Notes: a model not told the origin generated them from the letters alone. A stretch of 38,018 nucleotides of DNA from a virus (IMGVR_UViG_3300037789_000038:1-38018); one strand, 5' to 3'. Positions 1,385-29,312 are shown, numbered from the stretch's first letter. Translations and numbers: made by a program.

Positions 1385-1439
1385 GACCGCCTCGCAAATG
1401 TCTCTTTGAGGCGGGAGAATGAAGGGTTATTGAAAAAGC

Positions 1440-1451
1440 CTCACTGGACAG
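1440..1451 (-). promoter_or_regulatory. late-operon 12-mer CTGTCCAGTGAG, copy 1
   Basis: Exact 12-mer on the minus strand, 56 nt upstream of the ATG at 1384, followed by GCTTTTTCAATAA. Confidence 0.6.
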
Positions 1452-1704
1452 GCGGGGGATTTTCCGGCTCCAACAACACAGAACGACCTTGGCGCGTAAC
1501 AACAAGCGTGAAGCCCTGCACCTTTAATCGGCCCGTGCTGAGCACATGAATACGATCACCAAGCCGCAACCGACCAGCGACCATCGACCAATACCCGCTT
1601 TCTAGTAAATCTTCTGCCTTATGCTTTGTGCGATATGACCAGATCGAAATGCCCTGGCCGATTACCTCTTTGTGCAGGTTTTTGACTTCAACGCTCACGT
1701 CCAA
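1441..1704 (-). CDS. hypothetical virion-module protein (87 aa)
   Basis: ORF in the late operon with a 10-nt overlap with the upstream gene. No motif recognised. Confidence 0.55.
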   Translation of the reverse strand: MDVSVEVKNLHKEVIGQGISIWSYRTKHKAEDLLESGYWSMVAGRLRLGDRIHVLSTGRLKVQGFTLVVTRQGRSVLLEPENPPPVQ

Positions 1705-2375
1705 TTATCCCTCGCAAACTTGAGTGCGTCGATAAAGCCCTGGCCTTCGGCCCGCTTAATCTGTTGCGCCTGCAGGCGCGTATCGGCCTCACTAAGCCGC
1801 TTCGTGCATTCGCCAATATGATGATTGAGCCACCGGCGCATCGGATCGTTGCCACGAAACGGATATGCCTTTTTCGGGCTCGCAAGCGGACAACCAACCG
1901 GCATGTCAACTTCAATGCCGAATAGCTTTGCCACTTCGATGAAGTGCATCATCCCGGGCCGCTGATCCTCATATTCCGTGGCGCTCTCCATGTCGACGCC
2001 CCATAGGCCGATCTTTTGCGGCCCGGCCTCGATAGCATGGGCCATCAGCCAGTTTGGCGTGCCCTGCAGAAATTCCGTGGAATGTTTAGCTTCAATCAAG
2101 CTGCGGTCAAAAACCTGCGCTTCTGGAAGCCCATCAAAAGGCTCGAACAAAAACACCTTATCGCCAAACTCTTTGAGCCGGGAGATATCGTCAGCCGTGT
2201 AATAGGTGTTGAGCGTTTCGTTGCCGTGTATTTCGAAAAACTTGTCGCATCGGGGAATATGAATAGAGCCGCGACACATGGCCCATATTTCGGCGCTTGG
2301 GTCCGAAAAAGGGGCAAGGTGACGAGAAGATGGTGAAGTGCCGACGATATGAATTGACTTCGTTTTCGCTGACAT
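1695..2375 (-). CDS. hypothetical protein with Rossmann-like N-terminus (possible DUF115/sialyltransferase-like fold)
   Basis: 226 aa between the head and tail genes. Motifs IHIVGTSPS near the N-terminus and WLMAHAIEAGPQKIGLWGVDME later. The similarity is weak and judged by eye only. Confidence 0.6.
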   Translation of the reverse strand: MSAKTKSIHIVGTSPSSRHLAPFSDPSAEIWAMCRGSIHIPRCDKFFEIHGNETLNTYYTADDISRLKEFGDKVFLFEPFDGLPEAQVFDRSLIEAKHSTEFLQGTPNWLMAHAIEAGPQKIGLWGVDMESATEYEDQRPGMMHFIEVAKLFGIEVDMPVGCPLASPKKAYPFRGNDPMRRWLNHHIGECTKRLSEADTRLQAQQIKRAEGQGFIDALKFARDNWT

Positions 2376-2421
2376 TCTTCTCTCGCACCTTGCCCCACTC
2401 TCGCTTGGGCGGGAAGGAACC

Positions 2422-2703
2422 TTAAGCCGTCGAAATCGTCATCGGCGTAACGGTAACGTCCGTGCCGCCAACTCCGACAATGTACTGCTTGCCTTCCGGC
2501 GTGCCGTCAACATCGAGCGAAGCGAAAATCAAATCGCCCGTGTTCAACGGATCGCCGGCCGCGCCATCAAAGTACCCATCGGCCTCAACAGCCGTATCGG
2601 TATCATTGGTGGCGTAGTGATAGATTGCCTTAACGGAACCGTCGCCAGTGCCGATAGCGCCGCCTGCGGCAATCATTTTCAGTCCTGCATCATCGTATGC
2701 CAT
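2422..2703 (-). CDS. small Gly/Asp/Thr-rich protein, possible capsid decoration/cement protein
   Basis: 93 aa, directly downstream of the major capsid gene. The call rests on position only. Confidence 0.45.
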   Translation of the reverse strand: MAYDDAGLKMIAAGGAIGTGDGSVKAIYHYATNDTDTAVEADGYFDGAAGDPLNTGDLIFASLDVDGTPEGKQYIVGVGGTDVTVTPMTISTA

Positions 2704-2717
2704 GATTGTGGTCCTCC

Positions 2718-3551
2718 TTAACCGTCTTCATCCACAAGGAACTGCTGCACGCCTTCGGTGTCGATCAACACCGAGCCTTGCGACATGGCGTTGTTGACGA
2801 AGTGCGCGTGGTAGTCGCCCTGCCAAGTGATATCGGTTTCGACTTCGGCGCCGACTGCGTGACCAATCGCCGTGCGATGGTACACAAAGTTGGTGCTGAC
2901 CGTGGAGGACACCGTAAGCCCCGAGTGCGGCATCCAGATAACGTCCATCCACATTTTTGCCTGCATGGCGCCGGAACGGAACGGCAGGTTTTCCCCGATG
3001 TAATCGGAACTCGCGAACTGCTGGAAGCTGAGCATTTTGTCCCACACTTCCCAGGTCACGATACCAAATACTTCGCCGGGTTCAATCGGCACATCGCGAG
3101 AGCCAAGCGTCGTGACAATGCCCGAGAAGCTTGCCGCCGTGAGGGTCGACTTATCGGCTTCCGCCGTCTGATACGTGGTCGCACCGTTTGCCGCCGTGAT
3201 GATAAGATCGTCCGTCTGTCGGCCGAGCGCATAAGCGCCCGCGTTGACCTGAACGCGCCGCTCATCGTGGTTGATTTTCAACTCATCGAACTTGTCGACG
3301 TAATCGCCGGCAAAGTAGTCGGTGAGCGTGCATTCAACCGGCGTATGGTCGACGTTCATCAGCGGCACTTTGCCGTGACGGGTCTTGGTCGAAGCCGTGC
3401 CCTTGCCAACTTTCTGGAACGTGGTGCTTTGACCGCGCACGTTGTTTTTGACGCGAACGGTATTGCGAAGTTTGGAGCCCTTGCGCTGGTACGCTTCGTG
3501 AACTTCACTCTCGTACTGCTTTACAAAGGCGTCATCGATATCCATCGACAT
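2718..3551 (-). CDS. major capsid protein
   Basis: 277 aa following the scaffold gene, with RBS AAAGGAG before the ATG. The sequence FVKQYESEVHEAYQRKGSKLRNTVR...RHGKVPLMNVDHTPVECTLTDYFAGDYVDKFDELK matches a remembered phage capsid family. Confidence 0.8.
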   Translation of the reverse strand: MSMDIDDAFVKQYESEVHEAYQRKGSKLRNTVRVKNNVRGQSTTFQKVGKGTASTKTRHGKVPLMNVDHTPVECTLTDYFAGDYVDKFDELKINHDERRVQVNAGAYALGRQTDDLIITAANGATTYQTAEADKSTLTAASFSGIVTTLGSRDVPIEPGEVFGIVTWEVWDKMLSFQQFASSDYIGENLPFRSGAMQAKMWMDVIWMPHSGLTVSSTVSTNFVYHRTAIGHAVGAEVETDITWQGDYHAHFVNNAMSQGSVLIDTEGVQQFLVDEDG

Positions 3552-3750
3552 GATGGTTCTCCTTTTGACTGTGATTTACCTTTGATTGCTGCAGTTGGGT
3601 GTCGTTCCCTTGGCCGGGGTGGGTGTCCTACTTGCCGCCGCCGCCGGGTATCCTTTCGGGCCGGGTTTGGTCTTGGCGTTTGGGCCAGCCGGTTACGGTT
3701 CGGGCCTCCTGAAACAAATCGGGAGGACCGTAGCCCCCCCGAAAAAAACC

Positions 3751-3762
3751 CTCACTGGACAG
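3751..3762 (-). promoter_or_regulatory. late-operon 12-mer CTGTCCAGTGAG, copy 2
   Basis: Exact 12-mer just after the scaffold stop, followed by GGTTTTTTTCGGGGGGG. It heads the 217-nt leader of the capsid gene. Confidence 0.6.
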
Positions 3763-3768
3763 AGAGTG

Positions 3769-4701
3769 TTATGCCGCGCTTGGATAAACGCGCCGGAAGA
3801 TTTCTTGGACGCGGGCCTGTTTATCGTTGTTTTGCCAATAATCGTCGGAAGCCTGCAATTCCTTGGCCTCGGCCAACAATTCTTGGTTGTCCTTGCCCTG
3901 GATTGCGTGCAATTCCGGCGAAAATTTAGGCTCACCGGCGGCCGTCAAGATGGCCTCGATTGCCTCAACGCCCTGCGGCGATGGATTGGCGTTATCCGGC
4001 CAGATCAGCTTGGCATTATCCGCCCCAATCAAACCTTCCAGGCGCGACCGCGCAAAATCGAAGCGGTCTTTGCCATTCTCCCCGAGAGCCTTGTACGTTT
4101 CCGCCCTGGCCGCTTCCAGCGCTTCCGGCCCCGGCGTCATCGCCAATTCGGCTTCGGCATACGCCAGCACACCATCCATGAATTGTTCTTGGGAAAGCCC
4201 ATTGTCGAAAGCCGTATTCTTCCACCAGCCCAATAGCGGGTGCGTCTCATCAAACACGAAATACGACTTCCCTTCCTCGGGCTGGAAGTCATCGCCGGGC
4301 TTTTCCGACAACAGCACAATGCCGGTTTTTTCCGCCCGCTCGACCAGATTACCTTCCTCGGGCAACCCCACGGCGTAATCATCGACCTTGGCCGGTCGCT
4401 CTTTGAAGATTTCGGCCTTTACCGTGCCCTCGATTTCCGGGCGCAGCTTTTCCGTCAGTTCTTTGGTGATATCCGCTTCGATTTCCGAGCGAAGGCCGTC
4501 TTTGCCTTTTGAGAACCGCGCCCCCAGGTCCGTATGGGCCTTGGCCAAGTCCTCGACTTTAACTTCGCCTTTCTCGGCGTCCCAAAAATTCTCGGGAACA
4601 TATTCCGGGCGCGTTACCGCATCGCCGCCTTTGTCGCCATCACTTTGGCTTTCCGGGGCCGGCGCCCCCTCGTTCGATGTTTGGCCTTCCGCTTCTGCCA
4701 T
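3769..4701 (-). CDS. scaffolding protein
   Basis: About 310 aa, acidic and helical, located between the portal and capsid genes. The ATG at 4701 has AAGGAG 8 nt upstream; the track start at 4707 is a TTG. Confidence 0.65.
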   Translation of the reverse strand: MAEAEGQTSNEGAPAPESQSDGDKGGDAVTRPEYVPENFWDAEKGEVKVEDLAKAHTDLGARFSKGKDGLRSEIEADITKELTEKLRPEIEGTVKAEIFKERPAKVDDYAVGLPEEGNLVERAEKTGIVLLSEKPGDDFQPEEGKSYFVFDETHPLLGWWKNTAFDNGLSQEQFMDGVLAYAEAELAMTPGPEALEAARAETYKALGENGKDRFDFARSRLEGLIGADNAKLIWPDNANPSPQGVEAIEAILTAAGEPKFSPELHAIQGKDNQELLAEAKELQASDDYWQNNDKQARVQEIFRRVYPSAA

Positions 4702-4957
4702 TTTCAATTCTCCTTTGGATTACAGCGACAATGAAGCGTTGCCCCTCAAGATGACGAAGTTCGGTATCTGTCGTGTGCGGTCCCGTGACGGCGTTGATTG
4801 TCACGTTCTTTAGGTAGTTCAGGAATTTCTGGCCGGCTTTCGTTTTGAACGTGGCGGCCGCGAGGTCATTCAACTCAAATTCGCGCTCGGCAGAGCGCGT
4901 CACGCCATCTTCGCCCGGAACCAATTGCTCCGGTCGATACGTCTTTTCTTCGCTCAT
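4640..4957 (-). CDS. Bbp19-like small head-module protein
   Basis: 105 aa, with an ATGA-type overlap with the portal stop. The segment ELRHLEGQRFIVAVIQRRI resembles the Bbp19 domain of BPP-1-type phages. It overlaps the scaffold start by 62 nt. Confidence 0.5.
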   Translation of the reverse strand: MSEEKTYRPEQLVPGEDGVTRSAEREFELNDLAAATFKTKAGQKFLNYLKNVTINAVTGPHTTDTELRHLEGQRFIVAVIQRRIENGRSGRPNIERGGAGPGKPK

Positions 4958-6522
4958 GCTTGCTCCTGCGCGGCGGCAGTGGCGGCAGCGATGGCCTTCG
5001 CCAATTCCTCACGTTCAACCTGATTGCGCACAATGTTCGGATCAATGCCCATCTTGGCCGCCAGCCAATCAGCATATTGCTCTTGCTTAACCACAAGGCC
5101 GGCCGCCTGCGGGCCGATCCGCATATTCAGCATTTCCATGTAGCGGTCATGGCGCAAAATCTCGTCTTGTGCCTGCGCCCGCGTCAGGGGAGAGAGGGGC
5201 CGAAGCACAATTTTGCGGCCATCGATGGCCGGCAGCTTAATCCTCCCCTGTTTCTGCTTGATATACGCCACGCGCCGGATCGTCTGCCCAAGCAAATTCA
5301 CCAGCAATCGAGTGTATGGGCCCGCCCGGCGCCGGGCGCGATTAGAAGTCCGCTGCAGAACTTCCGTCGCACTCATCGGCGTGCCCTCGGGCGGGCCCAA
5401 ATCATCGACGCCCATCGCGTCTTTGATCGATACCGTGAGGTTGTTCACCATATACTCGCCAATGTTAAAATCAACGGCGGTATCAATACGCTGCAGCCCG
5501 TTTGAATTAGGCGCCTTCGGGATAATCGTGCGCGGTTCAATCGAAACCGTGTCCGGGTTTAGCACACCGTCATCATCGGCCTGCCAAATGCCGCCAAGCG
5601 CCAGATCGCCGCTTTCCAGCATGTATTCTTTGATGAGGTTGATCGTCTTGATATCCGGTAGCGCCACCATCACAGGGCCGCGCCCAAGCACTTCGCCGGC
5701 TACACGCATGTAAGAAAAGTCTACGAAAGGCTTGGAGCCCGCGCCCGAAATAGACCGCTCAAGCACCATATCCTTTGACTTGCCATACTCAACGGCAACA
5801 CACCACTTCCAAGTCTCAGCGCCCTTGTTTGTCCAATCGCGCTCATACGCTTCGATAAAGACAATCTCTTTCTCCGGCGTCTCTTTAGCCGCCTTTTCCA
5901 GATCGGTATTAAATTTGCCGCCCTTGTAGACCATTTTCATGTCGCCGGCCTTCACCTTGCGCGGGCGAAACAGCGCATCGTATTTGTCGTAAGGGCCGGT
6001 ATCCGGGTACGCCTCCGTCAAGGGCAGCGAGCGAAAACCCAAAGGCTCCACCGCATCCCCATCCTCGGGCAGCAAAAACCCGGTCGCGATGCCCCAATCC
6101 ATCAAACTTTCATGGGCCGCACTGCGGAAATTGGAATTGTTGATCGCGTCCGTTAATTCTTCGGTGACTTCCGCCAGCGCCCGGTTGACGGCGCTATGTT
6201 GTTCAATAGGGATTTCGCGGCCGGCGGCCAATTCAAAAGGCTTGCTATCAGTCGGCCAAATATCGTCCAACATTTGCGAAGCCATATCCTGCAGCGCATT
6301 CGGCGCAGTGCCGTCAAACAGGCGGTCCAAATCGGGCAGGCTTTCCCCGGTCGAATACACACGCTCACGCAAAGGCAGCGCAAACTCGTAACACTCATCG
6401 ATGATCGTGTTGAATTTATCGCGCCGGCCTTTCGCCCGGGCAAAACGCTTGAAAAAAGCCGCAACCTTTTCATCGCTCGCCTTGCTCGTATCAGGCCCGA
6501 TATTCGTGTTAGGGGTTTCCAA
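4954..6522 (-). CDS. portal (head-tail connector) protein
   Basis: 522 aa. Position and size match T7-type connector proteins. Confidence 0.8.
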   Translation of the reverse strand: METPNTNIGPDTSKASDEKVAAFFKRFARAKGRRDKFNTIIDECYEFALPLRERVYSTGESLPDLDRLFDGTAPNALQDMASQMLDDIWPTDSKPFELAAGREIPIEQHSAVNRALAEVTEELTDAINNSNFRSAAHESLMDWGIATGFLLPEDGDAVEPLGFRSLPLTEAYPDTGPYDKYDALFRPRKVKAGDMKMVYKGGKFNTDLEKAAKETPEKEIVFIEAYERDWTNKGAETWKWCVAVEYGKSKDMVLERSISGAGSKPFVDFSYMRVAGEVLGRGPVMVALPDIKTINLIKEYMLESGDLALGGIWQADDDGVLNPDTVSIEPRTIIPKAPNSNGLQRIDTAVDFNIGEYMVNNLTVSIKDAMGVDDLGPPEGTPMSATEVLQRTSNRARRRAGPYTRLLVNLLGQTIRRVAYIKQKQGRIKLPAIDGRKIVLRPLSPLTRAQAQDEILRHDRYMEMLNMRIGPQAAGLVVKQEQYADWLAAKMGIDPNIVRNQVEREELAKAIAAATAAAQEQA

Positions 6523-6528
6523 GACGGA

Positions 6529-6738
6529 TTACCCGAGCGTCATCGGGAAGCCCAATTCGCCCCCCTCATTGGAAAACAACGCACGGCGCCCACGCAAGCC
6601 CCGCCTCAGTGCGCTTTCTTCCTCTCTCTTTTTCCGCTCAAGTTCTTCTTTCTCGCGTTGCGCTTCCGCTTCCGCTGCGGCCCGCGCTTCCGCTGCGGAA
6701 TTATCCTGTTTCGGCGGCCCGCTGAATAAACTGTCCAT
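6529..6738 (-). CDS. small coiled-coil protein (69 aa)
   Basis: Charged stretch AEARAAAEAEAQREKEELERKKREEE, located 6 nt upstream of the portal gene. RBS GGAGGT. Confidence 0.55.
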   Translation of the reverse strand: MDSLFSGPPKQDNSAAEARAAAEAEAQREKEELERKKREEESALRRGLRGRRALFSNEGGELGFPMTLG

Positions 6739-7138
6739 TGCTTACCTCCAAGGCTTCAAGCGAGAGCAATTTGCGATATAAACCGTATGGGCTCACTGGA
6801 CAGACACCCGGCAAACCCAAAAGCGCCGATATTGCAGTGACGCACGTAGCAAACAGACGCGGCCGGCACGGCGCCCCCGTCATCTGCCGGGCCAGCACCA
6901 CCGTTGCCCGCCTTTTCGCCACCGCCGCCATGTATGCGCTAAATTCAGCCGCCGTATAGGCCCGGATCAGGCCACATTCCACCTGCGGCGCAAACAATAT
7001 CCACCGGCCGGCCGCCTCATCCCAGGCAATAGCCTCCACATGCTGAAAACCAGGTCGACACAGCCGCACCCACCACGGCCGCGCCGCACTATCCATGAAA
7101 ATCACGTACCATGCCGGCAGCAACCCAGGCCGCATCAT
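6701..7138 (-). CDS. hypothetical protein (145 aa)
   Basis: ATGATGA overlap with the terL stop. Contains late motif copy 3 near its 3' end. Confidence 0.55.
   Translation of the reverse strand: MMRPGLLPAWYVIFMDSAARPWWVRLCRPGFQHVEAIAWDEAAGRWILFAPQVECGLIRAYTAAEFSAYMAAVAKRRATVVLARQMTGAPCRPRLFATCVTAISALLGLPGVCPVSPYGLYRKLLSLEALEVSNGQFIQRAAETG
6792..6803 (-). promoter_or_regulatory. late-operon 12-mer CTGTCCAGTGAG, copy 3
   Basis: Exact 12-mer 54 nt upstream of the ATG at 6738. It lies inside the 3' end of the preceding ORF. Confidence 0.55.
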
Positions 7139-8682
7139 CGAAGCGCCCGCCTGCTAAACACGTTTTTCCGCTGCCTCGACGCCCGGGGCTCCTTGTGCCG
7201 CTCAAACACGCTCGCCGGCCGCTGCGCCACACGCGCCTGCGGGCGCTCACGGTTCCCATGCAGCGCCATGCGGCCCTCACCAGCACCCAACACAAGGTAC
7301 TGCAGCGCATCGGCAGGGTGCGAATATCGGTTTTTATCCGGGCTCTCACCGTACCGCTCACCGCTCACCTTCATGCGCTTATACTGATACCCGCCGCTCA
7401 TCGCCGCCTTGAGTATCCGAGCCCGGGGCGACAACAAAAACCTCGGCCGCCCGTCCACGGCCTGCGACAATATCTCCTTCACCGCCTCAATTCGCACCAC
7501 CGGGTCATTGCTAGGCGCCTGCACCACGTCCAAGCCCTCTGCCCGAAACATCATAAACGGCGAGATATCGTCTGCTTCCGCCAAGTGCGCGCCCGCCGGG
7601 TCGCCCCACAGCGCAAACTTGTGTCCAGGGTATTCCTCCGACAAATGCCGCTTCAATATCCGCGCAAACCCACGGGCGCCCATGTCCTCTGCCAAAAATT
7701 CTTCCAGCACCCGCCACCGATCAAACACACGCTGCCCAATGATCGCCGCCGGCGTGCGGCCAAAATCCAGCCCAATCAATATCGGATGGCCCGGCGCCGC
7801 CTCCAACGGCTCCTTAGAGACATGCCAATCCTCCTTAAACTCAGGCCACACAGCACGCCCCGCCGTCAGCGTCCCAGGCTTCACCATAAACTCAACGCGC
7901 ACCCACTCCCGCGTCTTGCCCTTCGCACGATCCACGTAATAATTCGCCGGCAGATACTTCAAATTCTCCGCCTTCGGGTTCGTGTCGTACCCAACCAACT
8001 GCCCGTTATCGTCAACACGCTCAATAACCCCAGGCGGTTGCACGTGAAACGACCAGTTATCAGGCCGCGTCAAACTCAAACGCTCACTCTCACTCAAATT
8101 CTCAGGGAACGGCACCAAATCCGCCATGATCGATATAAAATGATCCTCCCCAGGCGCGTTCGTGTCCAACAACACCTGCGGTTCAAAACAACCACCCATA
8201 TCAACACGCGGATAGCGCCCAATCCGACCAATCCCCGCATCAATCAATTCACGCGGTATCTCACGAGCCTCGTTAAACCAAATGTCCGAAGGCTCAGCAC
8301 TCAACAACTTCTTAACATCGTCCGGGCTGTCCAAAGCCAGAAAAACAACCTCCCAATGCAAATCATCCGTAACAATCTCATGCACCATCGGCTTCGACCG
8401 CTTCAACGGACCAACCTTGTTCTCCTGCCACCAATCCAACCACGTCTTCACCGTAGTCCGGTTCAGATCATCATACGTGTTCCGAATAATATACTGACGA
8501 CGACGACGCACCCCATCCGGCCCAGGAGGCTGGCCCAAAGCCTTCATACCCAACTTGATACACGTCGCCGCAGACTTACCAGAACCCCAAGGACCAACTA
8601 TCCCGCTCAACATCGATGAACACTGCAAAAAATTCACCAACGTCTCACCGTCAGGCGCATACGTTATCTCAACGCTCATCAA
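7135..8682 (-). CDS. terL: terminase large subunit
   Basis: 515 aa with Walker A motif GPWGSGKS near the N-terminus, upstream of the portal gene. Confidence 0.9.
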   Translation of the reverse strand: MMSVEITYAPDGETLVNFLQCSSMLSGIVGPWGSGKSAATCIKLGMKALGQPPGPDGVRRRRQYIIRNTYDDLNRTTVKTWLDWWQENKVGPLKRSKPMVHEIVTDDLHWEVVFLALDSPDDVKKLLSAEPSDIWFNEAREIPRELIDAGIGRIGRYPRVDMGGCFEPQVLLDTNAPGEDHFISIMADLVPFPENLSESERLSLTRPDNWSFHVQPPGVIERVDDNGQLVGYDTNPKAENLKYLPANYYVDRAKGKTREWVRVEFMVKPGTLTAGRAVWPEFKEDWHVSKEPLEAAPGHPILIGLDFGRTPAAIIGQRVFDRWRVLEEFLAEDMGARGFARILKRHLSEEYPGHKFALWGDPAGAHLAEADDISPFMMFRAEGLDVVQAPSNDPVVRIEAVKEILSQAVDGRPRFLLSPRARILKAAMSGGYQYKRMKVSGERYGESPDKNRYSHPADALQYLVLGAGEGRMALHGNRERPQARVAQRPASVFERHKEPRASRQRKNVFSRRALR

Positions 8683-8775
8683 TCAATCCCCAAAACAATA
8701 AAAAAAATAGCAAATTGCGTTTCCAGAAATCGTGCGCGTGATACCCGTGGGGCGGCGGCAGCCCGCGTTTTTTTT

Positions 8776-8827
8776 GCCCCCCCTGCCCCCTCGGTCGCGG
8801 CGTCTACTCATCCCCCCTGCCCCCCTC
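8776..8827 (-). repeat. direct repeat of a G-run motif (GAGGGGGCAGGGGGG type on the minus strand)
   Basis: Plus strand reads C7-TG-C5-TC at 8777..8792 and C6-TG-C6-TC at 8812..8827. Flanked by a T8 run (8768..8775) and an A8 run (8700..8707). Confidence 0.8.
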
Positions 8828-9319
8828 AAGGGCAAGGTCTACCTGCTGTAAGCCGCGCTGACCCTCGCTTTCGTGCTCTATCACCTGCGCCTGTGTCACT
8901 GGTGGGGCTGATTGCCCGTTGAGCACCACGTTCAACACAATGCCTCCGCTTTCCGCTGGTGACTTGTCGTGTGTTGGCTTAACCCCCGCAATCGCGAGCA
9001 GATGAGCGCTTGCGTCCTTTCTTACGCTTTCGCTGTTTGCCTTGTGTGCGAGGTGTTCGAGGGCTGCGGCTGACTTCATCAGGCCGATGGTTCGGAAGCG
9101 TTTATTTACCTTTGATGCGATTACGTCTGTGACATGCGGGCGGTTTAGGGCTCGATTGAGCGCTTCCCGTGTCATGCCGACTTTTTCTGCGGCAGCGCCT
9201 TGTGTTTCACACTCGCCGGAGATGAGCAGGTCGATAGCCTGGAGGACTTTCTTGCTCGGCGGTCTAGGTTTCTTTTTTTTTGCTGGCGTTTTGTCGTCGC
9301 TGTTAGCGGGCACACTCAT
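8804..9319 (-). CDS. putative terminase small subunit / DNA-binding protein
   Basis: Lys-rich N-terminus followed by an HTH-like segment AAAEKVGMTREALNRALNRPHV, directly upstream of terL. Start chosen at Met22 (9319) because the 9382 ATG lies inside the TATAAT that follows late motif copy 5. The start is uncertain. Confidence 0.5.
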   Translation of the reverse strand: MSVPANSDDKTPAKKKKPRPPSKKVLQAIDLLISGECETQGAAAEKVGMTREALNRALNRPHVTDVIASKVNKRFRTIGLMKSAAALEHLAHKANSESVRKDASAHLLAIAGVKPTHDKSPAESGGIVLNVVLNGQSAPPVTQAQVIEHESEGQRGLQQVDLALEGGRGDE

Positions 9320-9390
9320 GGCTGTTTTGTCCGTGTTGATAGGGTGGGGATGAGTGCGCGCGCGTAGCGTTGCCTGTCTCATTATAGGTT

Positions 9391-9402
9391 GTCAATGGAC
9401 AG
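9391..9402 (-). promoter_or_regulatory. late-operon motif variant CTGTCCATTGAC, copy 5, followed by TATAAT
   Basis: 10 of 12 positions match the late 12-mer. The minus strand reads CTGTCCATTGACAACCTATAATGAG at the head of the late operon. Confidence 0.5.
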
Positions 9403-9620: not shown

Positions 9621-9797
9621 ATGACTATGCACAATCTTACAATCTTCGGTCTTTCGCTGACAATGGCAATCATCGCCTTGTCACCCACCGTTGCGGGTTT
9701 TTGTTTCCGCGCCGCCGTTGTCATGCCGTTCGCCTGGGTTGGCCTGGTCGATGAACCGACCGCCCGCGCGATTGTGTTTCTCGGCATGGAGGGCTGA
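9621..9797 (+). CDS. small membrane protein (58 aa, two hydrophobic segments)
   Basis: ORF below the track cutoff. AGGAG lies upstream, and the stop is 3 nt before the next start. Confidence 0.4.
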   Translation: MTMHNLTIFGLSLTMAIIALSPTVAGFCFRAAVVMPFAWVGLVDEPTARAIVFLGMEG

Positions 9798-9800
9798 CCG

Positions 9801-10157
9801 ATGGCAACAGTAAGCTTTGAGCAAATGGCCGAGCGGATCGATTGCGGTTTCTTCGTGCGCGGAGAGGGCCGCCAGACTGACGCCGACCGCTTGGAGCGCT
9901 TGCTTTCCACGTTCGACTTTCAAGCCTTGCTAGAATGCGAAGAAGAAGGCGACGACCCGGACGAGGAAGAGCTGCACCGGCGTTTCGATGATGAAATCTT
10001 GCCGTTTGTTGTGGAGCAATACGAGCAAGACGGGCAGCCAGATTGGCCGGCGCGCCGCGAAGCGTTTTGCAACTGGATCGACAGCCTAAACAAAGACGGC
10101 GAAATATCCGACTGGATAGCGTCTAACATCGATCAACCGGCAAGCTGTGGAGACTGA
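9801..10157 (+). CDS. highly acidic early protein (118 aa)
   Basis: RBS GGAGGG. Contains the acidic run ECEEEGDDPDEEEL plus many further Asp/Glu residues. Confidence 0.6.
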   Translation: MATVSFEQMAERIDCGFFVRGEGRQTDADRLERLLSTFDFQALLECEEEGDDPDEEELHRRFDDEILPFVVEQYEQDGQPDWPARREAFCNWIDSLNKDGEISDWIASNIDQPASCGD

Positions 10158-10161
10158 CACC

Positions 10162-10410
10162 ATGAAACAATCATTCAAAGACATGGCAACGCGCCACGAT
10201 AACGCAATCATTTCGTTCGTCTCTTGTGTTGTCCGAGATATCGACTGCACCGAGGCAGACGCGCGCGCAATCCTGGGCTTGTACCTTGAGCACAAGATAG
10301 CCACCGTCGACCACCTGGGCGGAGGTGTGCGCGTTAAGCATGGCGCGTACCTTGAGCCCAACAGCCTGGAAAATGCCTTGCAGATGGTGCGTGAGACAGC
10401 CGCCGCATGA
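10162..10410 (+). CDS. hypothetical protein (82 aa)
   Basis: ATG at 10162 preceded by GGAG. The upstream ATG at 10147 would overlap the preceding gene. Confidence 0.5.
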   Translation: MKQSFKDMATRHDNAIISFVSCVVRDIDCTEADARAILGLYLEHKIATVDHLGGGVRVKHGAYLEPNSLENALQMVRETAAA

Positions 10411-10495
10411 CGCACCGCCGAGGGGCTTGGCAGAACGCCGAGCCTCTAACGGTGCGCCAATGGTGGCGGCCAGTTCAAGATAGGAGATTGGACAA

Positions 10496-10702
10496 ATGAC
10501 TTGGAACAATGAGCGCCGCGCAGAATGCGGAGGAAATGCCGTGCAGGCCGGAACGCCTGACTTCGAATACAACGACCCGCAAACAAACCTTGTGGACGCG
10601 CTAACAAATATCATGCACCACGCGGCCGCCGAATGTGACTTTGATCAGGCGTTACGGTCGGCCCGTATGCACTTCGAAGCAGAGCAGGAGGGCGACCAAT
10701 GA
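10496..10702 (+). CDS. hypothetical protein (68 aa)
   Basis: RBS TAGGAG 9 nt upstream of the ATG. Confidence 0.55.
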   Translation: MTWNNERRAECGGNAVQAGTPDFEYNDPQTNLVDALTNIMHHAAAECDFDQALRSARMHFEAEQEGDQ

Positions 10703-11004
10703 TTGCGCGCCACACGCCGGGCCCTTGGAATATCCGCCCAAAATGCGGAGGACAGATCGACAGCCCGAAAGGGCACCTTGCGACAGTTTACACGCACGGA
10801 GCAAATGACGCCGACTTTGACGAATGCACGGCGAACGCTCGATTAGTTGCCAGCGCGCCAGAACTCTTGCACGTATTGGAGCGCATTCTGTACGCCCACG
10901 ACACACACGGCACCGGCGCCGCAATGGGCGAGGCTATATTGTGCCGCGCTTACGCTGAAATGGCGCGGCACGCCATCGCCAAGGCGCGGGGGCTGGACAC
11001 ATGA
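10699..11004 (+). CDS. hypothetical protein of the HTPGPW ... NARLVASAPELL type
   Basis: ATGA overlap with the preceding gene. The motif pair recurs in many phage proteins of unknown function. Confidence 0.6.
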   Translation: MIARHTPGPWNIRPKCGGQIDSPKGHLATVYTHGANDADFDECTANARLVASAPELLHVLERILYAHDTHGTGAAMGEAILCRAYAEMARHAIAKARGLDT

Positions 11005-11267
11005 GCGAGCGCCCATTATGGCGGATCACTGCCTACAGCATGAAATACCGCAAGCGCATTCACTTGTTTACGTGGAGACGTTCGCCGGATGAAGGGATTG
11101 CGCGCGCGAAGCGTGACACGCTCGACTTTCCGCACCTTGGCGAATTGCGCGAATACAAGGCCGAACCCTTGGCCGTCGAATTGACAGACCAGGGCCAGCA
11201 GTACGTAATTCCGGGCGCAGAACGCGACCCGGAGCGCGGGCCCACACAAGGGAGCCTTTGGGAGTGA
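11001..11267 (+). CDS. hypothetical protein (88 aa)
   Basis: ATGA overlap with the preceding gene. Confidence 0.5.
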   Translation: MSERPLWRITAYSMKYRKRIHLFTWRRSPDEGIARAKRDTLDFPHLGELREYKAEPLAVELTDQGQQYVIPGAERDPERGPTQGSLWE

Positions 11268-11470
11268 ACGCAGAGCAGCTAGAACGCGCGGGGAGGGGAT
11301 TGTTTGGCGAGCGCTGGCAATCTCCCCTTGCGCGCGCGGTCGGAGTATCAATCCCGCAGATGCAACGATATGCAAAAGGCTCATATGAGATACCGCGCGC
11401 CGTGGAATTAGCGGTTAAGTATCTTTCCGCTCATCCAAAGATTGCGCAAGAGTACGGCCAGAAGCGATAA
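11258..11470 (+). CDS. small HTH DNA-binding protein (about 70 aa)
   Basis: HTH-like segment LARAVGVSIPQMQRYAKGSYEIPRAVELAV. Start is TTG at 11258 or GTG at 11264. It is the last gene of the early operon. Confidence 0.55.
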   Translation: MGVNAEQLERAGRGLFGERWQSPLARAVGVSIPQMQRYAKGSYEIPRAVELAVKYLSAHPKIAQEYGQKR

Positions 11471-11858
11471 CGGTCGCCGCGTTTGATAAGGTTTCGGCGG
11501 CCTCCATTAATTCCCGGGCAACCTCTGTCCGTTTTGGCATCGGTACACCAGTTTCCTTGATTTCCAGGCGGCACTGATGGTCATCAAGTATCTTAGCGAT
11601 CACGGTCGCGGAACTGCGCCAACTAGCCTTGGGAAAGCCGTCTGTTTCGATTGTTAGCGCCATACCAAGCGCCCGGGCCCACCAGTTTAACGAAACAAGC
11701 GATGGCCGCCGCTTTCCGCTTTCATACCAGCCGCACAAACCAGCGGCCCACCCCGTCATCCTGTCCACGTCGAGTTGCGTATAGCCAAGCTGTTTACGGC
11801 GGTTGCGGAACCCATCGATAAGCGGTCGCAAGAGCGGATCAATCTCATATGCCGGCAT
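11415..11858 (-). CDS. XRE-family HTH regulator with a C-terminal domain
   Basis: HTH segment RRKQLGYTQLDVDRMTGWAAGLCGWYESGKRRPSLVSLNWWARALG. It is the last gene of the leftward operon. Confidence 0.7.
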   Translation of the reverse strand: MPAYEIDPLLRPLIDGFRNRRKQLGYTQLDVDRMTGWAAGLCGWYESGKRRPSLVSLNWWARALGMALTIETDGFPKASWRSSATVIAKILDDHQCRLEIKETGVPMPKRTEVARELMEAAETLSNAATVIASGRTLAQSLDERKDT

Positions 11859-12033
11859 TCTTAAACTCCTGCAATCCGGTTTCGATCAACACGCGGAATT
11901 GTTCGGAAAGGCTGCAGTTGCTAAACACAGCCAGCGCCCGCACTTGGTCAAATGTTTCTTCATCTAGCCGCAGGACGTGCCGCTTGATGTGCGGGCGACG
12001 TTCGTCTCGCCACCCTTTGCCGATCCGCTTCAT
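11845..12033 (-). CDS. ribbon-helix-helix (Arc/CopG-like) protein
   Basis: 62 aa. The segment HVLRLDEETFDQVRALAVFSNCSLSEQFRVLIETGL fits a strand-helix-helix pattern. Confidence 0.55.
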   Translation of the reverse strand: MKRIGKGWRDERRPHIKRHVLRLDEETFDQVRALAVFSNCSLSEQFRVLIETGLQEFKNAGI

Positions 12034-14956: not shown

Positions 14957-15604
14957 ATGCAAAACAGATCAGACTTAAAGCACTGGTTACAATCGAGAAT
15001 GCGGCAAACAGGATGGTCTGCGGACCGTTGGGCGAAACAAGCAAAAATCGCCCCATCGACCGTCACGCGCTTTCTAAAGCACGACGATGCGCCGATGATG
15101 TCTCTAACCACGATCAATAAACTGACCGACGCACTGCCAGAAAATATCGACTATGGCGATGAAGATGATGACGCTATTTATTCGACACAACACGCAGCCG
15201 TGCCAAGATGGGACTATCGCGCCAGCGCCGGCCAAGGCATCCAAATACAAGAAGGCCCGGAAGAACGAGACTGTCTCCTTTTTCAGCGCGATTGGTTGGA
15301 GGGCATTGCCTCAAACGGCATAGACAAACTCTTTGCCTTAACAATCGAGGGCAACTCAATGGCGCCCACGCTCTTAGATGGCGATACGATCCTTGTCGAC
15401 CGCGCACAGACAAAGCCTCGCGGCGACGGAATTTACTTGCTCAACGTCGACGGTGAGTTGCTAGTAAAGCGCCTGCAGCGATCAATGGCCGATGGCACAT
15501 GGACGATTATCAGCGACAACCAGCTATATCCGAGTGAGCACGGCATAACGCCTGATTTGCTCGACATTGAAGGGCGCGTGCGATGGATCGGCCGTAAGAT
15601 TTAA
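14957..15604 (+). CDS. cI: CI-type repressor with LexA/S24 autopeptidase domain
   Basis: N-terminal HTH WSADRWAKQAKIAPSTVTRFL. C-terminal GNSMAPTL (Ser) and LLVKRLQ (Lys). Confidence 0.9.
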   Translation: MQNRSDLKHWLQSRMRQTGWSADRWAKQAKIAPSTVTRFLKHDDAPMMSLTTINKLTDALPENIDYGDEDDDAIYSTQHAAVPRWDYRASAGQGIQIQEGPEERDCLLFQRDWLEGIASNGIDKLFALTIEGNSMAPTLLDGDTILVDRAQTKPRGDGIYLLNVDGELLVKRLQRSMADGTWTIISDNQLYPSEHGITPDLLDIEGRVRWIGRKI

Positions 15605-17708: not shown

Positions 17709-18781
17709 CATTCCAATTCAAACCCGCCGTGCGCGAAAATGTTGGCCTTCTAATCTCGTTTGCTGGTGGCACGGGGTCAGGCAAGACTTACAGCGCAATG
17801 GAATTGGCGCAAGGGATCGCCGGCGATAAACCGTTTGCCGTCATCGACACCGAGGCCGGCCGCGCCAAGCACTACGCCGACCAATTTAAATTCGATCATG
17901 GCGAACTACTCCCGCCATTCCGCCCTATGCGTTACCTAGAGGCAATCAAAGCCGCCGATGAGGCGGGATATCCCGTCATCGTCGTGGACAGCGCCAGCCA
18001 CGAACACGCAGGCGAAGGCGGCCTGCTAGACTACCACGACGAAGAACTAACCCGCATGGCCGGAGACGATTGGAAGAAACGCGAGCGCGTTAAAATGGCG
18101 GCCTGGATCAAGCCAAAGACGGAGCACAAGAAATTTGTGCAATCGCTCCTACAGGTCCGGGCCCACCTAATCCTATGCTTCCGCGCCGAGGAAAAGGTGG
18201 AAATGGCGAAGGACCAAAGCGGCCGCACGCAGATTGTTCCAAAGCAATCGCCAGTCGGGCTTAACGGCTGGATACCTATTTGCGAAAAAAACCTACCGTT
18301 TGAAATGACCGCCTCGTTTCTACTCACTGCCGATCAACCGGGCGTGCCCCGACCGATCAAACTGCAGGAACAACACAAATTTGCCTTCCCGCCGAACCAA
18401 AAGGTTAGCCGATCCGCTGGCGCGGCACTGGCACAGTGGGCAAAAGGCGCGCAATCCTCCCCCCAGGCCGAACTCCCGGGCCAGGGCAACTCAGGGGCCG
18501 GCAAACCCTCAGACCGTCAGGAAACCCTGCCTGAAACCGAGGACGCCGGCCCCAAATTTGTTATCCAAGGCAAGGAACTAAAGACCTTCGATAGCATCGA
18601 CGCATGGCACGCTGGCTGGATGGGGATTATCGACGCAGTGAAGGCAGATAGCCTTCCGGCCATCCTTGAGCGCAATAAGCCGCACTTGGAGGCGCTTTAT
18701 GCCATCGATCAATATCAGCCGAAGGTTGTCGCCGTCGAGGCCGAGATTGAAAACAAAATCGAAAGAGGGGATGCAGAATGA
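17705..18781 (+). CDS. Sak4-like AAA_24 ATPase (recombination)
   Basis: GTG start overlapping the previous TGA, with GGAGG 7 nt upstream. Walker A GGTGSGKT, then VIDTEAG and VVVDS. Confidence 0.75.
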   Translation: MTFQFKPAVRENVGLLISFAGGTGSGKTYSAMELAQGIAGDKPFAVIDTEAGRAKHYADQFKFDHGELLPPFRPMRYLEAIKAADEAGYPVIVVDSASHEHAGEGGLLDYHDEELTRMAGDDWKKRERVKMAAWIKPKTEHKKFVQSLLQVRAHLILCFRAEEKVEMAKDQSGRTQIVPKQSPVGLNGWIPICEKNLPFEMTASFLLTADQPGVPRPIKLQEQHKFAFPPNQKVSRSAGAALAQWAKGAQSSPQAELPGQGNSGAGKPSDRQETLPETEDAGPKFVIQGKELKTFDSIDAWHAGWMGIIDAVKADSLPAILERNKPHLEALYAIDQYQPKVVAVEAEIENKIERGDAE

Positions 18782-19113
18782 GTGCATGGCCGATCACGCT
18801 GCAAGAAGCCGCCGAACGCCTACACGCCTCCGAGCGATGGCTACGCGACCACATAAAGACCCACCCTTGCGGCAGAAAGGCAGGCAGGCGCATCATCTTC
18901 ACCGAGCATGATTTCAACCACCTGTTAGGAACGCTGCAATGTCTCTCAAACTCACAAAGCGCGGTGACACCTACTACGTCACCGGCACAATCGGCAACCA
19001 ACGCATCCGAGAAAGTGCGAAAACTTCTGATCGACGGAAAGCAGAAGGCTTGCTTGCGAAGAGAACACAAGAGGCCTGGAACCGTCATATCTATGGCGAG
19101 CGGGAAACGGTGA
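18778..19113 (+). CDS. xis: excisionase-like HTH_17 protein; C-terminal extent uncertain
   Basis: ITLQEAAERLHASERWLRDHI...GRRIIFTEHDFNHLL. ATGA overlap with the upstream gene. The last 175 nt overlap int in another frame. Confidence 0.6.
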   Translation: MSAWPITLQEAAERLHASERWLRDHIKTHPCGRKAGRRIIFTEHDFNHLLGTLQCLSNSQSAVTPTTSPAQSATNASEKVRKLLIDGKQKACLRREHKRPGTVISMASGKR

Positions 19114-19967
19114 CACTAGCCGAGGCCGCGCTGATTTACTGCAGTGGCCGCGAGTTTTCCCCTAGTTATTATGATTGCCTGCTAAAGATTACGGATCGAC
19201 TTGGCGCCCGCCCATTGAGCAGCATCGATCAGCGCACGATGGATGACTATATCGCCACCTACTACCCGTCAGCAAAGCCTGCGACGATCCAGAAGAACGC
19301 CATCACCCCAATTACTGCGATTATGACCGCCGGCGCCAAGCGTGGCTGGTGCGACGTGCCGAAGTTTGAGCGCCCGAAGCAATCTCGCGGCCGCCTGCGC
19401 TATCTCTCGCGGGATGAGGCTGACCGGCTGATTTCTGAGTGCGCCGATCACATTAAGCCGCTTGTTACCTTTCTCATTCACACCGGCGCCCGCCTTGGCG
19501 AAGCGCTTGACCTTACCTGGGATGATGTTGACCTGTCCCGCCGCTTTGTCACGTTTCACGAAACCAAGAACGAAGAAAGCCGCAGCATCCCCCTCAACGG
19601 CACGGCATTTATGGCACTGGCGAACCTACCCGAGCGCGAAGGCGTAGTGTTCCGCAATGACAAGGGCGATCCTTGGTCACGCAAGACCAGCAACCCCATG
19701 AAAACGGGATACAGCGCCGCCTGCCGGCGAGCCGGGATCAAGAATTTTACAGTACACGACTTGCGGCACACGTTTGCCTCATGGCTTGCGCTGGAGAATA
19801 AAAGCCTGCGAACGATTGCGGAATTGCTTGGACATAAAGACCTGAAAATGGTCATGCGATATGCCCACCTGTCGCCCGGGCACCTTAAAGAAGCCGTGAG
19901 TGCAATTGACACACCAGCGACACAGCGCGCCGGCGATCAAGTGCAATCAATTGAAGGAAAACAATAA
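18939..19967 (+). CDS. int: tyrosine integrase
   Basis: C-terminal HDLRHTFASWLA...LLGH...RYAHL catalytic pattern, and an N-terminus MSLKLTKRGDTYYVTG typical of phage integrases. Confidence 0.95.
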   Translation: MSLKLTKRGDTYYVTGTIGNQRIRESAKTSDRRKAEGLLAKRTQEAWNRHIYGERETVTLAEAALIYCSGREFSPSYYDCLLKITDRLGARPLSSIDQRTMDDYIATYYPSAKPATIQKNAITPITAIMTAGAKRGWCDVPKFERPKQSRGRLRYLSRDEADRLISECADHIKPLVTFLIHTGARLGEALDLTWDDVDLSRRFVTFHETKNEESRSIPLNGTAFMALANLPEREGVVFRNDKGDPWSRKTSNPMKTGYSAACRRAGIKNFTVHDLRHTFASWLALENKSLRTIAELLGHKDLKMVMRYAHLSPGHLKEAVSAIDTPATQRAGDQVQSIEGKQ

Positions 19968-20654: not shown

Positions 20655-20984
20655 ATGAGTATTGAAAATCTGACGATCAAAGAAGTACGAGAAATTGCCG
20701 CAATGCTTGGCGGTAAGTCACAAATAGAACAGCACCCGTGTGTTGGCAAAAAGGTTCTAGCGATCTTGCCGGGGCGGTTCATTTACATGGGTACTCTTGA
20801 ACAATCCGGCGAACACTACGTCCTAAGAGACGCGAAGAACATTCGCTACTGGAAAGAACGCGATAACGGTCTTGGCGGGTTGGCTGCAAAAGGGCCGATC
20901 TCTGGCGATAAGATCGATGACTGCCCGCCCGTTTGGTTCCGCGCCGATGAGGAAATCGCGCTCATGGAAGTGACCTATGAGTAA
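20655..20984 (+). CDS. conserved phage protein of unknown function (109 aa)
   Basis: RBS AAAGGAG. The layout IKEVREIAAMLGG...HPCVGKKV...G.L...GEHYVLRDAKNIRYW matches a widespread uncharacterised phage family (from memory). Confidence 0.6.
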   Translation: MSIENLTIKEVREIAAMLGGKSQIEQHPCVGKKVLAILPGRFIYMGTLEQSGEHYVLRDAKNIRYWKERDNGLGGLAAKGPISGDKIDDCPPVWFRADEEIALMEVTYE

Positions 20985-21270
20985 AGGCTACGGCTACGGC
21001 TACGGCTCCGGCTACGGCTCCGGCGACGGCGACGGCTACGGCGACGGCTCCGGCTCCGGCGACGGCTCCGGCTACGGCTCCGGCTACGGCTACGGCTCCG
21101 GCTACGGCTACGGCTCCGGCTACGGCTACGGCTCCGGCTACGGCTACGGCTCCGGCGACGGCTACGGCGACGGCGACGGCTCCGGCTCCGGCGACGGCTC
21201 CGGCTACGGCTACGGCTACGGCTCCGGCTACGGCTACGGCTGCATTATATGGGGCGAAAAACATGGTTGA
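20977..21270 (+). CDS. Gly-X dipeptide-repeat protein, (G-[Y/S/D])x42 then GC (97 aa)
   Basis: MSK, then 43 Gly-X units, then IIWGEKHG. Translationally coupled to both neighbouring genes. Confidence 0.6.
   Translation: MSKGYGYGYGSGYGSGDGDGYGDGSGSGDGSGYGSGYGYGSGYGYGSGYGYGSGYGYGSGDGYGDGDGSGSGDGSGYGYGYGSGYGYGCIIWGEKHG
20986..21243 (+). repeat. 258-bp hexamer array GGC-(TAC/TCC/GAC)
   Basis: 43 consecutive GGCNNC units with only one codon used per amino acid. Four perfect 18-bp GGCTACGGCTACGGCTCC units form the centre. Confidence 0.95.
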
Positions 21271-29256: not shown

Positions 29257-29300
29257 CTCTCCGCTTGTGTGTGCGGAGTATGGACAAAGGCATAAAAGGC

Positions 29301-29312
29301 CTCACTGGACAG
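29301..29312 (-). promoter_or_regulatory. late-operon 12-mer CTGTCCAGTGAG, copy 4
   Basis: Exact 12-mer 45 nt upstream of the tail-fibre ATG, followed by GCCTTTTATGCC. Confidence 0.6.

Follow-up and report, generated by a model that had tools for sequence, protein, structure and literature searches.

A repeated 12-nucleotide word as the probable upstream half of late promoters in a lambda-organised alphaproteobacterial phage with T7-like virion genes

How a phage without a recognisable RNA polymerase or sigma factor of its own turns on its virion genes is the question raised by the viral DNA IMGVR_UViG_3300037789_000038:1-38018, in which a 12-nucleotide (nt) word recurs ahead of late genes. 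The whole stretch of 38,018 nt, hereafter the window, is a circular assembly with an exact 127-base-pair (bp) direct repeat at 1-127 and 37892-38018, and this terminal overlap places all five sites described below in a single genome of ~37.9 kb. The genome, whose gene content was obtained from PHROG and Pfam scans plus gene calls on the matching Logan contig of run SRR12659295, is that of a temperate, lambda-organised podophage of Alphaproteobacteria with T7-like virion genes. We consider it likely that the five copies of the word are the upstream halves of activator-dependent, sigma-70-type late promoters for these virion genes. The coordinates of all features are collected in Table 1.

The word CTGTCCAGTGAG is present in exactly four copies on the minus strand, which is the late-gene strand, with its first base at 1451, 3762, 6803 and 29312; on the plus strand the equivalent CTCACTGGACAG is found at 1440, 3751, 6792 and 29301. 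A fifth copy with two mismatches, CTGTCCATTGAC, starts at 9402 of the minus strand (GTCAATGGACAG at 9391 of the plus strand). These are the positions recorded in the initial annotation, and an exhaustive search of both strands of the window with up to two mismatches adds only the 9391 variant to the four exact copies and finds none in the opposite orientation. Likewise, in a position-weight scan built from 22 related sites, no additional site exceeds 9 bits on the late-gene strand or reaches 8 bits on the plus strand. The claim that such a set is not expected by chance is borne out by dinucleotide-preserving shuffles, 100 of which yield no match to CTCACTGGACAG.

Each copy lies shortly upstream of a late gene or gene cluster, at distances that agree with those originally reported to within 1 to 6 nt. 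The TGA within the copy at 1451 is the stop codon of an 85-residue (aa) gene, and the motif ends 55 nt before the ATG of tail tubular protein A (1384). The copy at 3762 begins 6 nt past the stop codon of the scaffold gene, at the head of the 217-nt gap between scaffold and capsid, and the copy at 6803 is located within the 3' end of a 145-aa open reading frame (ORF), its end lying 53 nt before the ATG (6738) of a 69-aa ORF that is followed by the portal gene. The copy at 29312 lies 30 nt past the stop codon of an 808-aa internal virion gene and ends 50 nt before the ATG of the fibre gene (29250), or 44 nt before the TTG chosen previously as its start. The variant copy at 9402 is positioned in a divergent intergenic region, 72 nt before the called start of terS (ATG 9319).

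An alignment of 23 sites from the window and its relatives, numbered from the C of CTGT as position 1, reveals two separate conserved elements: information peaks at positions 1-11 and 31-36 only, and the spacer (14-30) and the sequence beyond position 37 are near-random. Positions 8-13 form a -35-like hexamer (GTGAGG, GTGAGC, GTGACG or GTGCGC), and the G-to-T change that marks the 9402 copy as a variant generates the consensus -35 hexamer TTGACA at the head of the late operon. Positions 31-36, following a 17-nt spacer, form a -10-like hexamer (CATTCT, CATACT, CAAATT, GATATT or TACGGT), in which A occupies position 32 in 19 of the 23 sites and T occupies position 36 in 18. The terS-slot sites have their -10-like hexamers (AACGCT, CATCCT, CACTCT) after an 18-nt spacer; this spacing is found at six of the seven, window included, and the seventh, L203:3670, has no qualifying hexamer. 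Four of the window sites have a spacer of 17 nt and the terS site has one of 18 nt, both within the 17 ± 1 nt of sigma-70 promoters. At the tubular-A sites of the relatives, CATTCT or CATTGT is present at identical spacing in all, and at their fibre-gene sites CAAACT is present at equal spacing. A hexamer with A at its second and T at its sixth position, 17 or 18 nt past the -35-like hexamer, is present at 32 of 37 sites from 13 contigs, compared with a background rate of 8.3% in the same contigs (binomial P = 6e-30, with kinship among the sites ignored), and at all five sites when the window is taken alone (P = 4e-6). These bases correspond to A(-11) and T(-7), which sigma-70 region 2 recognises most stringently, and the geometry together with this -10 signature points to the host housekeeping holoenzyme.

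The heptamer in front of the -35-like hexamer falls at about -42 to -36, and heptamer and hexamer are identical in four of the five window sites, as is the case for promoters that share the site of a late activator. Additionally, the word may be divided into two adjoining pentamers of the form CNGTS and CNKTG: the window has CTGTC CAGTG, most relatives have CTGTG CGGTG, and L211-L214 have a perfect repeat, CGGTG CGGTG.

Transcripts are predicted from the sequence to start at motif positions 43-45, approximately 31 nt past the end of the 12-mer and thus at the edge of the 20-30 nt supposed in the initial annotation. In three cases among the relatives a start codon coincides with the predicted +1: that of tubular A in L201 (11800) at position 43, that of terL in L203 (4868) at position 45, and that of the gene after the helix-turn-helix (HTH) gene in L215 (8987) at position 44. 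With start codons at these positions, neither a leader nor a Shine-Dalgarno sequence can be accommodated; this is consistent with leaderless mRNAs initiated at the predicted +1 and suggests that some relatives make late mRNAs of this kind. The leaders predicted for the window measure 20-40 nt and contain GGAG-type Shine-Dalgarno sequences, with the exception of the long capsid leader.

A separate observation concerns the terS slot, where the predicted start sits in a CGCGCGC block. A GC block, (C)TACGCGCGCGC or TCGCGCGC, is conserved there in all lineages (window 9340-9366 and the terS-slot sites of L035, L201, L203, L204, L206 and L212), and candidate roles for it are those of initial transcribed sequence, regulator site and packaging signal.

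If the word is a functional element, it should not be absent from syntenic positions in related phages, and the opposite is found. Contigs were fetched for the nearest relatives of the capsid protein and later for relatives of an HTH protein considered below; 12 related metagenomic contigs (L035, L036, L201/L202, L203, L204, L206, L210, L211-L214, L215 and L216) bear versions of the word in matching slots, always on the late-gene strand, at a capsid identity to the window of ~60-65% where this is measurable. The slots are those before terS or terL, the portal cluster, the capsid gene, tail tubular A and the fibre gene. In L035 the correspondence extends to the TGA of the copy at 7533, which, as in the window, is the stop codon of the gene before tubular A (86 aa). 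The flanks of orthologous sites are only 26-60% identical.

The relatives carry the word as CTGTGCGGTG, CGGTGCGGTG, CTGTGCGTTG or CTGTCCTGTG, and the copies within one genome share one version, with small variants at the terS slot only. The heptamer is CTGTCCA in the window, CTGTGCG in L035, L036, L203, L204, L206 and L210, CGGTGCG in L211-L214 and CTGTCCT in L215, and L201 combines CTGTGCG with T at position 8. Across 37 sites, there is no variation at positions 3, 4, 6, 9 and 10 (G, T, C, T and G) and position 1 is C in 36, while positions 2, 5, 7 and 8 vary between genomes and hardly within them. Even the portal-slot copy, which lies in coding sequence, has the version of its own genome. 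Such a concerted change of the word from genome to genome is the signature of a genome-specific, trans-acting reader.

Two further features of individual relatives were observed. A lone copy of the window version (CTGTCCAGTG) is located inside the 808-aa gene of L035 at 16192, whereas the promoters of this contig use CTGTGCGGTG; this copy is probably due to chance. In L036 (2140-2720), there are three tandem copies of a 194-bp segment that comprises the portal-slot promoter together with the 3' end of the gene before it.

The twelve contigs with the word belong to the nearer subclade of relatives. No near-identical phage was found in a DNA search of INPHARED, and the nearest cultured capsid is that of Pelagibacter phage EXVC031P (42% identity). 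The capsid family is large and alphaproteobacterial, occurring in more than 580 GTDB species genomes, mostly of Rhodospirillales such as Azospirillum and Thalassospira, and its nearest sequences are just 63-65% identical to that of the window; the capsid search retrieved none above 58% identity from IMG/VR and none above 61% from GTDB genomes. Many of the IMG/VR fragments with this capsid family (the L040-L199 set) are only 12-13 kb in length. The motif is absent, flanks included, from prophages with capsids of 55-59% identity in 80 genomes of Rhodospirillales and other Alphaproteobacteria (the prophages examined were those of Azospirillum, Thalassospira, Elioraea and others, together with IMG/VR relatives), and a noisy search for analogous motifs in these distant relatives yielded nothing convincing. 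L200 has no such motif and an ordinary terminator in its stead. The more distant L037 also has no CTGT word; it contains an exact, co-oriented 13-mer, ATCCTACATTGCG, at 3289, 9846 and 11147, which precedes the portal cluster, the capsid gene and tubular A and includes the -10-like hexamer TACATT. In light of this separate 13-mer, lineage-specific late-promoter words may be general in this phage group.

This distribution also bears on the idea that the word is a host-wide repeat shared by the prophage, such as an uptake sequence or a Chi-like or REP-like element, or simply a chance repeat. Uptake sequences are typically short, strand-biased, intergenic 10- to 12-mers followed by T-rich sequence, a description that the word resembles. 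However, chance is excluded by the shuffles, the word is tied to fixed phage gene slots, and the distant prophages of the 80 alphaproteobacterial genomes, with their flanks, do not contain it. Additionally, the CTGTGCGGTG core is found in phages of 53% and 67% G+C, which presumably have different hosts. We regard this explanation as extremely improbable. When IMG/VR was scanned for the word with a T run after it, 33 loci were obtained, all of them chance matches and most in one conserved coding stretch of unrelated low-GC phages, and the scan was discarded.

The T/A-rich stretch that follows the word had been pointed out in the initial annotation. It is real in the window, and in genomes of intermediate G+C content the T run starts at motif position 15 or 16, but it is missing at the equivalent slots of the GC-rich L036, L203, L210 and L212 and lies in the promoter spacer rather than in the -10 element; it is treated as compositional or at most accessory. 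Together with the stems that can be drawn around the word, the T run raises the alternative that the sites are intrinsic terminators or RNA elements, such as processing sites or targets of an RNA-binding antiterminator, that end late genes. Three of the window copies indeed lie 0-30 nt past a stop codon and are followed by T4-T7, with stems of GCCU/AGGC at 1451 and of six pairs, a G-U pair included, at the scan-flagged 3762, and L035:2897 has a clean 6-bp stem followed by UUUUU. However, the stems are of 2-6 bp in differing registers and mostly no better than those of shuffled sequences (z -2.2 to +1.0), a lenient terminator scan passes the 3762 site only, so that the sites as a set do not qualify as intrinsic terminators, and an Rfam covariance-model search of the whole window returned no match. 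A terminator would also leave unexplained the A/T pair 17-18 nt further on, the start codons at positions 43-45 and the presence of a copy before the most highly expressed gene, that of the capsid. As neither T run nor stem is conserved, the terminator or RNA hairpin was rejected, and we consider it very unlikely. The initial view that there is no consistent stem and that a DNA-recognition element is favoured over an RNA hairpin is thus upheld by the folding, the syntenic conservation and the sigma-70-like -10 element at fixed spacing.

The capsid slot is distinctive in that a G-rich hairpin with a T tract overlaps the spacer and the -10 hexamer. The loop contains the -10 hexamer, and transcription is predicted to start immediately 3' of the stem. 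A hairpin of differing sequence is present at the capsid slot of L035, L036, L203, L201, L210 and L212, with stems such as GGGGAG/CTCCCC in one and GGCGGGA/TCCCGCC in another. It is reasonable to suppose that this hairpin may terminate transcripts of the scaffold gene where the capsid transcript would begin.

The T7-like virion module, and near-identical, genome-specific late promoters as in the T7 group, with a word that changes from genome to genome, suggest another possibility, namely that the sites are promoters for a phage polymerase or sigma factor invisible to sequence profiles. Many ORFs are without a family match, including those of the 725-aa and 808-aa proteins. However, the absence of an obvious polymerase or sigma gene noted at the outset extends to Pfam and PHROG scans of essentially all ORFs, none of which has such a domain. 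The largest unannotated ORFs hold the position of internal virion proteins, that of T7 gp15 and gp16, and the bipartite -35/17-18/-10 layout, in which A(-11) and T(-7) are kept, matches the bacterial housekeeping holoenzyme and not a single-subunit polymerase. A cryptic phage polymerase or sigma factor is improbable in our judgement, with the qualification that a small sigma-like or sigma-appropriating factor is conceivable. A likeness of the plus-strand CTCACT to T7 promoters was rejected on three grounds, namely the wrong orientation, the lack of a polymerase and the loss of CTCACT from the relatives (CACCGCACAG).

The word could alternatively be a loading site for a processive antiterminator, Q-like or of the ops/RfaH type, given that the element is asymmetric, lies on the non-template strand and is co-oriented with the 22-kb operon. 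The lambda-like gene order places a regulator gene at the location of Q, and an AlpA-like ORF adjoins the site of L204. In this case, however, a single site at the operon head would suffice, whereas five are kept, each with its own -35/-10 pair, and no match to the Q, NusG/RfaH or AlpA families was obtained in the Pfam and PHROG scans of the window ORFs. We judge antitermination quite improbable, with the qualification that a Q-style protein, which binds a promoter and also modifies the polymerase, could conceivably act at the terS-slot site.

Activator-dependent promoters require a reader, and the same scans of essentially all ORFs reveal no match to Mor/C, Ogr/Delta, RinA/ArpU or CII. A candidate is the XRE-type HTH protein of 147 aa encoded by the last gene of the early operon, at what we take to be the position held by Q in lambda. 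In L203, L204, L206, L215 and L216, the gene immediately before the terS-slot motif, or before terS itself, encodes a relative of this protein, and a distant relative precedes terL in L037. The family is rare, with 102 hits below 1e-3 and three below 1e-10 among 1.8 billion representatives in an exhaustive search, and a word-index homology search retrieved only the protein itself. An AlphaFold model built with no alignment was poor (pLDDT 49) and was not used. We put the 147-aa protein forward tentatively, as a possible reader of the word. A weaker alternative is a 62-aa ORF that by eye resembles an RHH protein; it has no Pfam or PHROG match and is replaced in L204 and L206 by an unrelated, non-orthologous ORF of 66 aa.

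Several observations weigh against activator-dependent promoters or against this particular reader. The -10 hexamers are weak (CATTCT, TACGGT, AACGCT), a generic consensus promoter scan calls none of the five sites, and in the AT-richer genomes three or four sites look like weak terminators, with a 4- to 6-bp stem and a T run. The orthologous sites are not independent, so the P values given above overstate the evidence, a problem that is lessened by the test restricted to the window and by the near-random flanks. Both the activity of the promoters and their start sites are predicted from sequence. For the XRE-type protein, gene position makes a weak case, and in L201 no orthologue was detected over the 4 kb upstream, where an unrelated small ORF with an HTH-like segment was noticed by eye. 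The recognition helix has Trp in the window, with its CCA core, and Lys in the others; covariation of helix and word was considered and rejected, as L215 has Lys with a CCT core, and no simple helix-word code is apparent.

On the reading of activator-dependent sigma-70-type promoters, we infer that the sites are active, that their transcripts start as predicted and that they depend on a phage protein. The host RNA polymerase holoenzyme would supply recognition of a weak -10 element that keeps A(-11) and T(-7). The fusion of a genome-specific heptamer to a mostly poor -35 hexamer implies a phage-encoded partner at or next to the -35 region, most likely an activator from the early operon, which would read both and, bound beside or over the -35 region, would recruit the polymerase in a class II-like manner. 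A partner is also to be expected because late promoters that needed none would express virion genes in the lysogen; with an activator, these genes would be silent in the lysogen and would be fired from five points on induction.

A more specific proposal, doubtful as a whole although possible, is that polymerase-less, T7-like temperate phages of Alphaproteobacteria possess a new late-transcription system. The rare XRE-type protein, or another unannotated early protein, would bind the two 5-bp repeats (CNGTS CNKTG) that overlap the -35 region as a monomer or a tandem pair and would re-programme the host sigma-70 holoenzyme at the five promoters, and protein and word would co-diverge between phage lineages as orthogonal pairs. 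The capsid promoter itself would form part of a terminator hairpin, which would halt transcripts from upstream at the point where the new one starts.

The surroundings of the late genes include features of interest in their own right. The HTH gene and the terS-slot promoter are separated by a block of seven small plus-strand ORFs (9621-11470), one of which weakly matches Phage_P22_Y8K6; this block is missing in L203, L204, L206 and L215, where HTH gene, motif and terS are directly consecutive. A dense tandem repeat of 6- and 12-nt units (GGCTACGGCTCCGGC...) occupies 20986-21240 of the plus strand (ORF 20977-21270) and encodes a 97-aa product rich in Gly, Tyr, Ser and Asp. The 780-aa internal virion protein (31766-34108, minus strand) contains a ddrB-like ParB superfamily domain (Pfam E = 6e-34), which is also present in its orthologues in L035, L037 and L201. 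The gene of tail tubular B spans the assembly junction, and the holin belongs to the GTA_holin_3TM family.

Table 1. Features of the window and sites of the word in related contigs (designated by L-numbers)
Feature	Position	Strand	Sequence	Details
Predicted late promoter, tubular-A slot	1409..1451	-	-35-like GTGAGG 1444-1439; -10-like CATTCT 1421-1416	motif 1451-1440; 17-nt spacer; predicted start ~1409; orthologues L035:7533, L036:7370, L203:12423, L210:9147, L201:11758, L212:7721
Predicted late promoter, capsid slot	3720..3762	-	-35-like GTGAGG 3755-3750; -10-like TACGGT 3732-3727	motif 3762-3751; predicted start ~3720; capsid ATG 3551; orthologues L035:5949, L036:5687, L203:9778, L210:6572, L201:9791, L212:5698
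Predicted late promoter, portal slot	6761..6803	-	-35-like GTGAGC 6796-6791; -10-like CAAATT 6773-6768	motif 6803-6792; predicted start ~6761; orthologues L035:2897, L036:2599, L203:6741, L210:3485, L201:6823, L212:2617, L216:3419
Predicted late promoter, terS slot (late operon head)	9359..9402	-	-35 TTGACA 9395-9390; -10-like AACGCT 9371-9366	variant motif CTGTCCATTGAC 9402-9391; 18-nt spacer; predicted start ~9359; orthologues L035:309, L203:3670, L201:4081, L204:3114, L206:2286, L212:5
Predicted late promoter, tail-fibre slot	29270..29312	-	-35-like GTGAGG 29305-29300; -10-like CATACT 29282-29277	motif 29312-29301; predicted start ~29270; orthologues L203:20453, L210:17151
G-rich hairpin plus T tract	3709..3742	-	TCGGGGGGGCTACGGTCCTCCCGA TTTGTTTC	10-pair stem
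Candidate trans factor (weak), 147-aa XRE-type HTH	11415..11858	-		Pfam HTH_3; last early-operon gene
Alternative candidate (weaker), 62-aa RHH-like ORF	11845..12033	-	KRHVLRLDEETFDQVRALA...	likeness by eye
Early rightward operon	14506 to 11415	-		RuvC-like, DUF1376 replication protein, several unknowns, XRE-type HTH last
CI-like repressor	14957-15604	+		HTH plus S24 peptidase
Excisionase-like gene	18778-19113			
Integrase	18939-19967			
DNA methylase	23036-24046			
Late operon (22 kb), first part		-		terS (start 9319), terL, 145-aa ORF, 69-aa ORF, portal, scaffold
Late operon, middle		-		capsid 3551-2718, three small ORFs, tail tubular A 1384-806, tubular B
Late operon, end		-		internal virion proteins of 153, 725, 780 and 808 aa; fibre 29250-27844; endolysin, holin
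Word in L035	309, 2897, 5949, 7533, 52		CTGTGCGGTGA	309 before terS; 2897 in 3' end of 141-aa gene; 5949 is 6 nt past scaffold stop; 52 is an extra copy
Word in L036, L203, L210			CTGTGCGGTGC	same slots; L203 and L210 additionally before terL and fibre gene
Word in L201 / L202			CTGTGCGTTGA	same slots
Word in L211-L214			CGGTGCGGTGC	same slots; CAGTGCGGTGACA before terS
Word in L204, L206			CTGTGCGGTGACA	between HTH gene and terS
Word in L215			CTGTCCTGTGCG	between HTH gene and following gene
Word in L216			CTGTGCGGTG	portal slot

Literature searches for the word and its variants returned primer matches only, and a search for the promoters of T7-like phages lacking an RNA polymerase returned only Rhizobium phages, which have one. 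To our knowledge, the timing of late transcription in polymerase-less T7-like phages has not been described. The promoter model is readily testable, as it supplies exact coordinates, predicted starts, four or five natural variants of the word and few candidate regulators. For annotation, the word serves as a marker for the beginning of late transcription units and sometimes for leaderless genes, and if its reader were found, word-protein pairs would offer natural orthogonal promoter-activator parts for Alphaproteobacteria.

Among known systems, the late promoters of phage Mu (Plys, PI, PP and Pmom) need C and its middle promoter needs Mor, each activator being a product of the preceding temporal class. 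The promoters described here resemble them in number, in a recognisable -10 element with a poor -35 element, and in an expected small HTH activator site that reaches the -35 region. The sites of Mu are dyad-symmetric and extend to about -55, whereas the present word is asymmetric, spans ~11 bp from -42 to -32 and is accompanied by no detected Mor/C relative. In T4 middle promoters, the phage-read MotA box of ~9 bp is likewise asymmetric, the host sigma-70 reads the -10 element and AsiA is the cofactor. Both systems have a phage-specific element that replaces or overlaps the -35 region at a fixed distance from the -10 element; the MotA box, however, is centred at -30 and requires AsiA, while here a -35-like hexamer is kept and relatives of MotA and AsiA are absent. 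The likeness to the T7 group lies in the order of the virion genes and in near-identical, genome-specific promoters before late clusters, but T7-group promoters are single blocks of 23 bp read by a phage single-subunit polymerase, whereas those of the window are bipartite and no polymerase gene was found.

A second group of comparisons concerns direct repeats near the -35 region. Pho boxes consist of direct repeats starting with CTGTCA at or immediately upstream of a poor -35 element, in promoters whose -10 element is good, and PhoB touches sigma region 4 there. The CTGTCCA of the window resembles a Pho half-site, and the repeats are tandem in both; the two repeats of the Pho box are of 7 bp at a spacing of 11 bp, whereas those of the word measure 5 bp and adjoin each other. 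The version of the word follows the phage and not the host, which makes host PhoB an unlikely reader. The lambda CII site, TTGC-N6-TTGC, also consists of direct repeats, which flank the -35 element, but its promoters serve lysogeny, whereas those described here precede late genes and no CII match is present. Phage P2 has four late promoters and one small activator, Ogr, the site of which (TGT-N12-ACA) is centred at -55; the Ogr, B and Delta systems of P2, 186 and P4 share with the present set the multiple late promoters and the expected single small phage activator, and differ in that no Ogr/Delta match exists here. As a lead for the search for the reader, the anatomy of the word appears closer to the direct repeats of PhoB and lambda CII than to the dyads of Mu C and P2 Ogr. 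The set thus belongs, by its features, to the known class of activator-type phage late promoters; it differs from the members compared here in lacking a recognised late-activator family and in residing in a lambda-organised phage with a T7-like virion module, and what is new is the word, which is asymmetric and lies at -42 to -32.

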